Origin: Escherichia coli
Lineage (GTDB): Bacteria; Pseudomonadota; Gammaproteobacteria; Enterobacterales; Enterobacteriaceae
Assembly (NCBI RefSeq): GCF_029227855.1
Contig: NZ_CP074356.1
Direction: 5' to 3' (one strand)
Length of the DNA: 64,000 bases
Shown here: piece after piece, positions 38,474 to 39,853 of the stretch
Position numbering within the stretch: the first letter of the stretch is position 1
How the letters are laid out: each line of letters starts with the position of its first letter
Translations under genes and position numbers: made by a program
Notes under the pieces: model-generated
Seen by the model: only the letters and a program-made list of their open reading frames with translations
What the model was told of the DNA's origin: nothing
Databases searched by the model: none

Positions 38474-39853
38474 TTAATATTTTTTCCTTAGATCTCCGTT
38501 TAAATGAGATAAATTAACTGTTGCAAACTTGAGCAACTCCACATCAGAGGTAGATGGCTTCTCATCTAAGATGCCTAATTCAATCCATTCTTGGACTATT
38601 TTTTCATTATTAATTATTTCACTGTAAAACTCTGAACTTATTTTGTCCATAGTAATATAGTAATTACTTGAAACAACAAACTTCTTCTTAGTCCAAAGTT
38701 TCTTCTGGAAATTCTCAATTTGTGCCAAAAATGCAATGAGTTCCAGCGCAACAGTACGCAAACATTGAATCATGCGCAATTGTTTCTCAATATTGGCAAA
38801 CACTTCTGCATTTTGCACATTATCGAGATTCATTACTTCATTTTTAATATAAAAATCCAGTTCGTTAGTTAAAAAACCACCGAGATCTTTATGAATAAAG
38901 TAGTCTGCTGTATTACGCTGGGTATAAGTTGTAAGATGACGCTCCAACTCTGTACGTGACGGATTTTTTTCTGTTGGCGCACGTTTAGCAAGATCAACCC
39001 AATGCTGTTGAACTGTTTTATCAGCCAGAATTGTTGAAATAGCGGACTGCACTAAAGCATCCTGCTTAGTGCCCTTTTTCATGGCCTTATATTCGAAGTG
39101 AATAACTAACTCTTCTGTTTCAACGAGTTTACCGTCAACCACAGATGAAGTTTTCACCACTTCTACTGGCTTATATTCTTGTTCGTACTCATCGCCTTCT
39201 TCATCAATTTTGGTACGAACATGCGGCTCAATAAGTACAAAGCAGCGATCTAATTCATTATCTTTACGGTTATCTTTTGCTGTGTCCGCTGCGAGCAATT
39301 TAAAGCTAACTTTACGACCCTCATCTAATTTAAATGAATAATTAGCAAAGTTTTCACCGCTTTTAATGTAGTACTGGTCCTTATTTGCCCAGTGCAACAT
39401 CACTTCTTCGCCAGAATAAGGGATGGCGTAGGTATTACCTTTATAACGGCGTTTGCTGATAAAATCGCCGTTGTCATAATAACGCGAAAAGAAAGTCAGC
39501 AGATGGGAAAATACTGCATTTTCATGCTCATTTGCTCCGGATGCCATAGCCGCCAGTTGCTTTTTAAGCTCCTGTACTTTCGGGCTATCAGCAGGGTCCA
39601 CACCCGCATCAGTTGCCGCTTTTATTGTCAGTTGCAACTGATGTTCTAATTCTGATTTATTGGCATTTCCTGCATCCGCCAGCGCAGACTGGATTTTGGC
39701 CTTCAGCTTATTATCCAGATAGTCGTTAATTTCATCAGCACGTGCATTTAAAATACGATAAATACCGAAATCCAGTTCTGGTCGATCAATCTGAAAAATT
39801 TCTTTTAGCTTCTTAACTAATTCGTTGTACTTACTCATTATTTTCTCTTTCAA
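38474..39853 (-). CDS. N-terminal ~455-aa domain of unknown function, probably the 5' part of the methyltransferase gene separated by a frameshift
   Basis: ORF ends in an A6 run at 38480-38485 (coding strand) and overlaps the methyltransferase frame; first ATG at 39838 (MSKYNELV); start lies within ~20 nt of the SNF2 stop. Confidence 0.6.
   Translation of the reverse strand: MKEKIMSKYNELVKKLKEIFQIDRPELDFGIYRILNARADEINDYLDNKLKAKIQSALADAGNANKSELEHQLQLTIKAATDAGVDPADSPKVQELKKQLAAMASGANEHENAVFSHLLTFFSRYYDNGDFISKRRYKGNTYAIPYSGEEVMLHWANKDQYYIKSGENFANYSFKLDEGRKVSFKLLAADTAKDNRKDNELDRCFVLIEPHVRTKIDEEGDEYEQEYKPVEVVKTSSVVDGKLVETEELVIHFEYKAMKKGTKQDALVQSAISTILADKTVQQHWVDLAKRAPTEKNPSRTELERHLTTYTQRNTADYFIHKDLGGFLTNELDFYIKNEVMNLDNVQNAEVFANIEKQLRMIQCLRTVALELIAFLAQIENFQKKLWTKKKFVVSSNYYITMDKISSEFYSEIINNEKIVQEWIELGILDEKPSTSDVELLKFATVNLSHLNGDLRKKY

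Follow-up and report, generated by a model that had tools for sequence, protein, structure and literature searches.

A 64,000-nucleotide stretch of Escherichia coli DNA (contig NZ_CP074356.1, assembly GCF_029227855.1), called the window here in its full length, almost certainly carries a frameshifted copy of an Eco86II-type Type III restriction-modification operon, in which genes for a SNF2 ATPase, the methyltransferase subunit Mod and the restriction subunit Res follow one another. The open reading frame (ORF) at 38474-39853 on the minus strand, the first 44% of mod, encodes the N-terminal region of this M.Eco86II-type Mod only, including a family-specific N-terminal module (N-module) of about 385 residues. 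As an account of the whole locus, a frameshifted Eco86II-type mod whose N-module is a non-catalytic platform is the explanation we favor as probable; that the module organizes the Mod2-Res complex is the part we put forward more tentatively. The window copy is best annotated as a frameshifted, probably silent mod, neither a separate gene nor an intact fusion.

A missing base in an A tract splits mod

The ORF listing gives 459 codons that extend to a TTG at 39853 and occupy exactly 38474-39853. Translation probably begins with the ATG at 39838, which equals the start of the RefSeq coding sequence (CDS) in strain E24377A and gives a product of 454 aa (38474..39838, minus strand; 454 codons plus TAA). 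The ORF is clearly coding as judged by homology, because it scores 1031 bits against the PADLOC profile MTase_III PDLC03646 and has 2,354 homologous cluster representatives. It covers profile positions 1-458 of 1057 and a second ORF covers positions 486-1057; the profile spread over both ORFs therefore represents one single protein elsewhere. In E24377A, mod is one CDS of 1040 aa (WP_000049824.1, 'site-specific DNA-methyltransferase').

The remainder of mod (36717..38513, minus strand) contains the beta-class amino-methyltransferase core, the target recognition domain (TRD) and a conserved C-terminal region. It is listed as an ORF of 560 codons at 36717-38399, and its frame is open only from 38513. 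All catalytic features of a Type III Mod lie outside 38474-39853 and in this other frame, namely the GDNYQALNLL motif (38397-38426), motif IV DPPY (38346-38357) and motif I FAGSGT (37488-37505), all on the minus strand. Motif IV precedes motif I as in Type III Mods, with the TRD between them. The sequence-only reading had described a large N-terminal domain fused to the methyltransferase; in the window there is no such fusion and no uninterrupted mod frame, as a TAA (38476-38474) follows a tract of six A residues and the catalytic part continues in the other frame.

Alignment with E24377A revealed a sole length difference in mod, GGAAAAAAATATT in that strain and GGAAAAAATATT in the window, that is, A7 versus A6 at mod codons 452-454. 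The A6 tract lies at 38480..38485 on the minus, coding strand (T6 on the plus strand) and is A7 in intact alleles. Adding one A back yields DLRKKILNSINDIDD and a 1040-aa ORF. The missing A is the cause of the frameshift that splits mod; the last two residues of the first ORF (KY) and its stop codon are products of the shift.

The split mod belongs to a known system

The window mod differs from that of strain NCTC86 by 4 nt over 3138 nt, the indel included; after repair, a single substitution, D173E, separates the protein from M.Eco86II. In E24377A, a close relative, SNF2 and Res have RefSeq accessions identical to those in NCTC86. E. coli F9792 and B4103-1 give 99.9% DNA matches to the mod region, as does NCTC86, and their enzymes EcoF9792I and EcoB4103II are GAGCC isoschizomers of Eco86II (PMC8259958). 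From NCTC86, Murray et al. (2021) described Eco86II, a Type III system with protective N4-methylcytosine (m4C) at GAGCC, a recognition sequence of 5 bp only; hemi-methylation of this asymmetric site is accompanied by ATP-dependent cleavage about 25 bp downstream that requires head-to-head sites (PMC8259958). The cloned Eco86II mod alone methylated 98.9% of sites, and a native Mod+Res fraction, partially purified and free of third-protein peptides, cleaved about 25 bp to the 3′ side of GAGCC, so that the third ATPase is needed for neither methylation nor cutting (PMC8259958). GAGCC with m4C would be the expected specificity of the system if the window mod were repaired.

Because gene and system are already in the literature, REBASE and PADLOC, the locus itself is no discovery. 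The sequence-only reading did not recognize Eco86II; what survives of the novelty is the N-module, which PMC8259958 does not discuss. The text of that paper contains zero occurrences of 'N-terminal' or 'amino-terminal', and a full-text search found Eco86II mentioned in no further paper of the library searched.

The mod gene stands between its two partners, both on the minus strand. The SNF2-family ATPase (39859..42750, 963 aa), the 'additional helicase-like ATPase' of Eco86II-type systems, ends 20 nt upstream of the mod ATG; in the published systems a helicase-like ATPase gene likewise lies 5′ of mod and is found beside such systems in >500 genomes (PMC8259958). The Res subunit (33334..36714, 1126 aa) starts at an ATG 2 nt after the mod stop. 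It has superfamily 2 helicase motifs (GSGKT, DEGH) and a C-terminal PD...(D/E)xK-like sequence, PDF...IDPKG, and it matches the PADLOC profile REase_III PDLC03654 with 2326 bits. No Protein Data Bank (PDB) chain was found for it by phmmer at E≤0.01, EcoP15I Res included, nor any NCBIfam family. Judged by these searches, Res is a strongly diverged lineage specific to this Mod family.

In Type III systems, Res depends on Mod for site recognition. As written, the operon should be OFF for methylation and restriction, without self-toxicity, because Res needs Mod to find DNA and the A6 allele would thus silence both activities. Two routes to an active product were considered. An internal restart for the catalytic half is unlikely: inspection of the frame from 38513 gave no plausible in-frame start before the TTG at 38399, which follows the conserved GDNYQALNLL and lacks an obvious Shine-Dalgarno sequence. 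A −1 ribosomal slip on AAA-AAA would give back the exact wild-type sequence; we set it aside, as nothing was found to support it.

Length variation at the A tract

A megablast search of 5,426 complete E. coli genomes matched the mod region in 166, with ≥80% query coverage in 33. Nearly all 33 high-coverage matches span 3138 nt, versus 3137 in the window, and 22 of the 25 best hits are at 3138. Over 21.1 kb, the window and E24377A differ by 6 mismatches and exactly 1 gap. As this stretch contains 41 A/T runs of ≥6 (nine of ≥7), the single gap indicates that there is no general homopolymer indel noise.

We compared the homopolymer length at the A tract between the window (38480-38485) and five further strain loci (L001, L002, L087, L088 and L089). 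NCTC86, E24377A and the majority of strains have A7 there; A6 is shared by the window, MS 21-1 and H22, and MB06101 has A8. The H22 allele is divergent (46 differences) yet also has A6, and the PGAP annotation marks the mod genes of MS 21-1, H22 and MB06101 as 'frameshifted'. Three further runs of 7 within mod are invariant in the compared genomes. We read this strain variation as the mark of a genuine mutational hot spot.

Hypermutable tracts recur in relatives of this gene. At the position aligned with E. coli aa ~425-432, in the connector between the N-module and the catalytic domain, a Cardiobacterium sp. has a C10 tract with the frame intact (L047, 4448), a Neisseria sp. a G11 tract with the frame split (L048, 11120), Kingella oralis a C11 tract with the frame split (L050, 2212) and Moraxella catarrhalis a C11 tract (L056, 11145). 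In the Neisseria and Kingella genes the outcome is the same as in the window, an N-module ORF of 390-401 aa followed by a methyltransferase ORF. The connector is thus a recurrent site of hypermutable tracts. In addition, three members of the Pasteurellaceae carry (ACAGC)16-18 or (ACAAC)16 at codons ~9-24 (L052, 9901; L053, 5278; L060, 9903), pentamer repeats of the classic phasevarion type. Because of these G/C tracts and pentamer repeats, parts of this Mod family appear clearly built for phase variation.

The window could then be the OFF phase of a phase-variable mod, with the A tract as a contingency locus, the module boundary as the preferred switch point and a free N-module kept in OFF cells. 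The occurrence of A6, A7 and A8 among E. coli at one tract, despite three other runs of 7, speaks for this, as do the G/C10-11 tracts in the same linker of Moraxella, Cardiobacterium, Neisseria and Kingella, the split Neisseria and Kingella genes and the Pasteurellaceae repeats. We nevertheless regard it as possible rather than probable. For slippage to be efficient in E. coli with intact mismatch repair, A7 is a short run; among E. coli assemblies the three lengths occur at one short tract where sequencing error is possible, and the long tracts occur in relatives; the linker may be the only site that tolerates a Pro/Gly run; and the Pasteurellaceae repeats, at the 5′ end, would remove the whole protein, so that a free N-module is no requirement shared across the family.

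The split might also be an artefact, the true gene being A7 and encoding 1040 aa, with one base lost to a homopolymer error in sequencing or assembly. That only one base differs, within a homopolymer, and that most E. coli with this allele have A7 (22 of the 25 best hits at 3138 nt) would suit an error. The nearly gap-free 21.1 kb with its 41 A/T runs, the recurrence of A6 in MS 21-1 and the divergent H22, the A8 of MB06101 and the PGAP frameshift in all three make this explanation unlikely.

In some E. coli, mod is broken by IS1 directly after the N-module (~aa 390) or by an IS3-family element (L090, 6016-9897, MINF_8D; H42, MARGA_4). Inactivation of mod appears to be frequent in this species and to take several forms.

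The N-terminal module is conserved and has no detectable relative

In the intact protein, the Pfam methyltransferase domain PF01555 spans residues 489-812, and residues 90-472 of EcoP15I Mod align to residues 462-810 (E = 1.7e-39). The count of about 455 residues before the catalytic domain given by the sequence-only reading therefore holds for the intact protein, as does its statement that classical Type III Mods lack such an extension, EcoP15I having only about 90 residues there. Within this region we distinguish the N-module (aa 1-385; 38684..39838, minus strand), delimited by AlphaFold2 (AF2) models, conservation and an allele breakpoint near aa 390, from the connector (residues 386-454; 38477..38683, minus strand), which is poorly conserved, forms part of the variable cassette in E. 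coli alleles and in other genera hosts the long G/C homopolymers.

The AF2 model of residues 1-465, built on a 35-sequence alignment, has a mean predicted local distance difference test score (pLDDT) of 82. It consists of a helical hairpin (34-77/86-120), a beta-rich subdomain (121-254) and a helical subdomain (259-460) in which one helix (347-385) runs for nearly 40 residues. For the full-length protein, a model from 51 sequences reached pLDDT 81.5 and a predicted template modeling score (pTM) of 0.76. In it residues 388-470 are ordered (pLDDT up to 96, strand 388-396) and the connector packs with the methyltransferase domain; since they are ordered when that domain is present, these residues are predicted to be structurally part of the catalytic domain. 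The most conserved loop, 130-162, has a pLDDT of 33-53 in both models.

Searches for relatives of the N-terminal region were negative. In Pfam the query had no match at E≤10, nor did any of 35 diverse members of the family at E≤1e-3; NCBIfam and PHROGs gave zero matches; a 35-sequence profile run against PDB sequences returned only chance matches (best E 0.3); and Foldseek with the N-terminal model against the PDB had a best E of 0.3 with a TM-score of 0.10. Against AFDB50, Foldseek returned 253 hits at E≤1e-3, and the best 50 of the 253 are all methyltransferases of the same family. The module is apparently a new fold, without detectable sequence or fold relative. The view of the region as devoid of recognizable motifs and of assigned function was thus borne out, and a match to a characterized methyltransferase N-terminal domain, which would have overturned it, did not turn up.

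Conservation is concentrated in five motif blocks, all on the minus strand. Block 1 (aa 18-29) contains LDFGIYRI (39752-39775). Block 2 (aa 113-132) has the consensus FFSRYYDxGDFISxRRY, here FFSRYYDNGDF (39461-39493). Block 3 (aa 137-162) reads YAIPYxGEEVxLHWANxDQYYIKS, here YAIPYSGEEVMLHWANKDQYYIKS (39359-39430), block 4 (aa 309-334) NxxDYFIHKDLGGFLxxELDFYIKNE, here DYFIHKDLGGFLTNELDFYIKNEV (38834-38905), and block 5 (aa 375-388) ExFQKKLWxKKKFV, here FQKKLWTKKKFVV (38672-38710). Between E. coli and distant phyla the five blocks are 83-93% identical and the catalytic blocks 48-63%. In the 51-sequence alignment, identity to E. coli Mod averages 74% for aa 121-170, 63% for aa 1-33 and 61% for aa 301-390; it is 38% for the motif IV block, 46% for the motif I block and 15% for the TRD. 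By these alignments the motif blocks of the N-module are the most conserved part of Mod.

At the other end of the protein, Mod residues 830-1040 (36717-~37350) are without Pfam or PDB match and form a second constant arm in E. coli alleles, and aa 891-1040 are strongly acidic (net charge −12).

Alleles exchange the catalytic cassette and keep the N-module

About 130 E. coli genomes match the mod query in two pieces, with ~53% coverage. We compared one such allele, RS571 (WP_000049830.1, 1034 aa; L006, 8016-11120), with that of E24377A (L001, 9016-12138). Identity is 98-100% over Mod residues 1-360, 80% over 361-400, 11-58% over ~400-880 and again 98-100% over ~920-1040; the flanking SNF2 and Res proteins are 99.0% and 98.4% identical. 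Taken in broader blocks, aa 1-390 and aa 890-1040 both lie at 98-100%. The exchanged cassette comprises the catalytic core and the TRD, and the N-terminal module is a constant arm. The RS571-type allele probably differs in specificity and may also modify another base. Because the N-module stays constant while the catalytic/TRD cassette is swapped, a role in target recognition, one option raised by the sequence-only reading, appears very unlikely. The net charge of the module (−4 over aa 1-390), the TRD in its usual place and the 5-bp site all agree with this.

Distribution and partner genes

A HMMER search of 1.84 billion cluster representatives found 2,354 proteins at E≤1e-3, 857 of them at E≤1e-30. 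Among the 150 matches listed, nearly all are ~1000-1100 aa long and carry the N-module at the N-terminus, and the shorter ones look like fragments. A profile search of a 5.8-billion-protein set found 3,142 proteins in which, two oddities excepted, the only Pfam domain is PF01555. The exceptions are rare homologues (P0248, P0257) that combine the N-module with Vsr-like (PF04480/PF18741) or GIY-YIG (PF01541) endonuclease domains and may be insertions or fusions. Counted on one-genome-per-species contigs, at least 586 species encode the module, and the phyla concerned include Proteobacteria, Chlorobi, Chloroflexi, Verrucomicrobia, Planctomycetes, Actinobacteria, Bacteroidetes, Firmicutes, Spirochaetes and Nitrospirae, among others.

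To survey partner genes, all ORFs of 80 loci were translated and searched with the SNF2, Res, catalytic and N-terminal sequences of the window; 40 loci had enough flank to be informative. SNF2 lies upstream and Res downstream in 25 of the 40, and the order is Mod-Res-SNF2 in 6 (Pasteurellaceae, Neisseria, Moraxella). Res is present with SNF2 absent within 10 kb in 8, and the last locus has SNF2, no Res and a truncated mod. A cognate long Res thus accompanies the module in 39/40 loci and SNF2 in 32/40, and two metagenomic look-ups agree; the association with Res-like and SNF2 genes, for which the sequence-only reading had suggested a survey, is real. The loci with the order Mod-Res-SNF2 in place of SNF2-Mod-Res (L047-L049, L051-L053, L056, L060) come from Pasteurellaceae, Neisseria, Moraxella and also Cardiobacterium.

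The motif blocks are as conserved in the 7 aligned SNF2-less loci as in loci with SNF2. The constraint on them therefore does not appear to come from SNF2 and points to Res, a second Mod or DNA. A role of the N-module as an SNF2 docking site is weakened accordingly, with 8/40 loci lacking SNF2 and the 7 that were aligned keeping the motifs.

A proposed platform role for the N-module and its rivals

We tentatively propose that the N-module is a non-catalytic, non-sequence-reading platform for assembly or communication within the Mod2-Res complex. It would act by contacting Res, by Mod dimerization or as a non-specific DNA clamp, and recruitment of the SNF2 ATPase would be an optional extra. The invariant loop 130-162, which AF2 does not place in the monomer, would fold on partner binding. 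A platform fits because the module, specific to its family, stays constant and is not basic overall; it also occurs with one Res family, has a coiled-coil-like hairpin and contains an invariant loop that does not fold in the monomer.

Several points weigh against this account. The strong conservation, with many invariant polar and aromatic residues, also fits an enzymatic or ligand-binding site. Homologous recombination alone gives conserved arms around a swapped cassette, which makes the support for a scaffold indirect. The published methylation by M.Eco86II alone was obtained with a protein that has the N-module (PMC8259958). Finally, a sequencing or assembly error may have shortened the homopolymer to A6, and mod would then simply be intact.

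The module could instead be a sensor or enzymatic domain with a ligand or substrate of its own, for instance a nucleotide, a protein from a phage or a signal given by SNF2, that switches the complex between methylation and restriction. Its short polar and aromatic motifs, conserved above the blocks of the methyltransferase active site, its apparently new fold and the presence of SNF2 in 80% of loci are compatible with such a role. We consider it unlikely, as no catalytic signature was recognized and no likeness to enzyme or ligand-binding folds was found, the motifs are the same where SNF2 is absent, and Mod alone methylates fully while Mod+Res cut without the ATPase (PMC8259958).

An extra DNA-binding or target-reading role, in which the module would gate or extend recognition, for instance through DNA shape, modification state or a second site, is less probable still. 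It was proposed in the sequence-only reading; the basic helix FQKKLWTKKKFVV would suit it, as would the many invariant residues that are charged or aromatic. The module is identical, however, between alleles with very different central cassettes; its net charge over aa 1-390 is −4, versus +10 in the central TRD region; the TRD of EcoP15I aligns to the stretch that separates motifs IV and I; and the Eco86II site is 5 bp only (PMC8259958). Non-specific DNA clamping may still belong to the platform model, and we keep it there.

Least probable of these, in our judgment, is that the N-module is an autonomous unit still made when the methyltransferase is OFF, an idea prompted by homopolymers at the module boundary in several unrelated lineages (A7 in E. 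coli; G/C10-11 in Neisseria, Kingella, Moraxella and Cardiobacterium): the frameshift would leave a free protein of ~50 kDa that engages Res and/or the SNF2 ATPase and might hold Res silent or run a methylation-independent activity. If true, the autonomous module would add to Type III systems a fold and a regulatory role that are both new.

With the platform as our preferred reading, the interest of the locus lies in the module. A segment of ~385 residues occurs in thousands of Type III Mods from many phyla, is more conserved than the catalytic core to which it is attached, and has no Pfam family, solved relative or published description; the same Mod family recruits an SNF2 ATPase. If the partner bound by the module were known, the mechanistic difference between these enlarged Type III systems and EcoP15I could probably be explained. 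The role of the module is a fair question for restriction-modification specialists, short of the surprise of a new system.

Genomic context

The operon sits in a low-GC block (window 32000-44000; 36-45%, compared with 50-57% in the flanks) where a CP4-like element (Ag43, antirestriction, YeeU/CbtA) ends, with nanC/nanM on the other side. At ~31799-32671 on the plus strand and in neighboring positions, the annotation of relatives gives a phosphorothioated-DNA-binding restriction endonuclease, adjoined by an HNH remnant. The block around the operon looks like a defense-island hotspot.

Comparison with known systems

Two other helicase-methyltransferase systems come close to the operon in part. 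As in class 1 DISARM, a methyltransferase adjoins an SNF2 protein whose best PADLOC and NCBIfam matches are DrmD models. These matches are below threshold (NF038318, 666.7 bits with a cut-off of 950; NF038317, 294 with a cut-off of 610), DrmA, DrmB (DUF1998) and DrmC are lacking, and the methylase is a PF01555 Type III Mod paired with Res. DrmA and DrmB are not in the three-gene operon, the third gene matches only REase_III in PADLOC, and the annotated neighbors are unrelated. We therefore rejected a DISARM reading, core genes being missing and the DrmD scores sub-threshold. Automated defense finders could mislabel the operon as a partial DISARM.

The Hma/DUF499 BREX-related systems and Type 3 BREX likewise pair a Swi2/Snf2 helicase with a PF01555-type N6/N4 methyltransferase bearing extra non-catalytic domains (PMC12839542). 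The operon and its annotated flanks, however, contain no DUF499/BrxC ATPase, PglZ or BrxA/B, and with these core genes absent we discarded this assignment too. PADLOC gave no BREX or Hma methylase match for the N-terminal region, and BrxXI has only a short N-terminal prelude and C-terminal helix-turn-helix domains (PMC12839542). A supposed likeness of 'DYFIHKDL...FYIKNE' to the N-termini of BREX PglX and Type IIG enzymes was unsubstantiated and was dropped, since PADLOC found no PglX and the N-terminal domains in PMC12839542 differ.

EcoP15I Mod (PDB 4ZCF) shares with the window Mod the beta-class order DPPY ... TRD ... FxGxG and a res gene behind it. It is shorter (644 aa), lacking anything that corresponds to residues 1-~385 or to the greater part of 830-1040, and EcoP15I makes N6-methyladenine (m6A), compared with the m4C of Eco86II. 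The EcoP15I Res is not detectably similar by phmmer, and that system has no SNF2 partner. M.Eco86II is by far the closer match, with the same three-gene operon and a near-identical mod; the window mod differs by its frameshift, A6 for A7, which leaves an ORF for the N-terminal region only.

With the phasevarion methyltransferases (modA, modM, modS), finally, this family shares conserved N- and C-terminal arms around a swapped center and, in several genera, simple-sequence tracts within the ORF. In classical phasevarions the repeats lie near the 5′ end and only the TRD is variable, whereas here the cassette includes the whole catalytic core and, in four genera, the tract is placed mid-gene at the module boundary; the E. 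coli tract is only 7 bases long.

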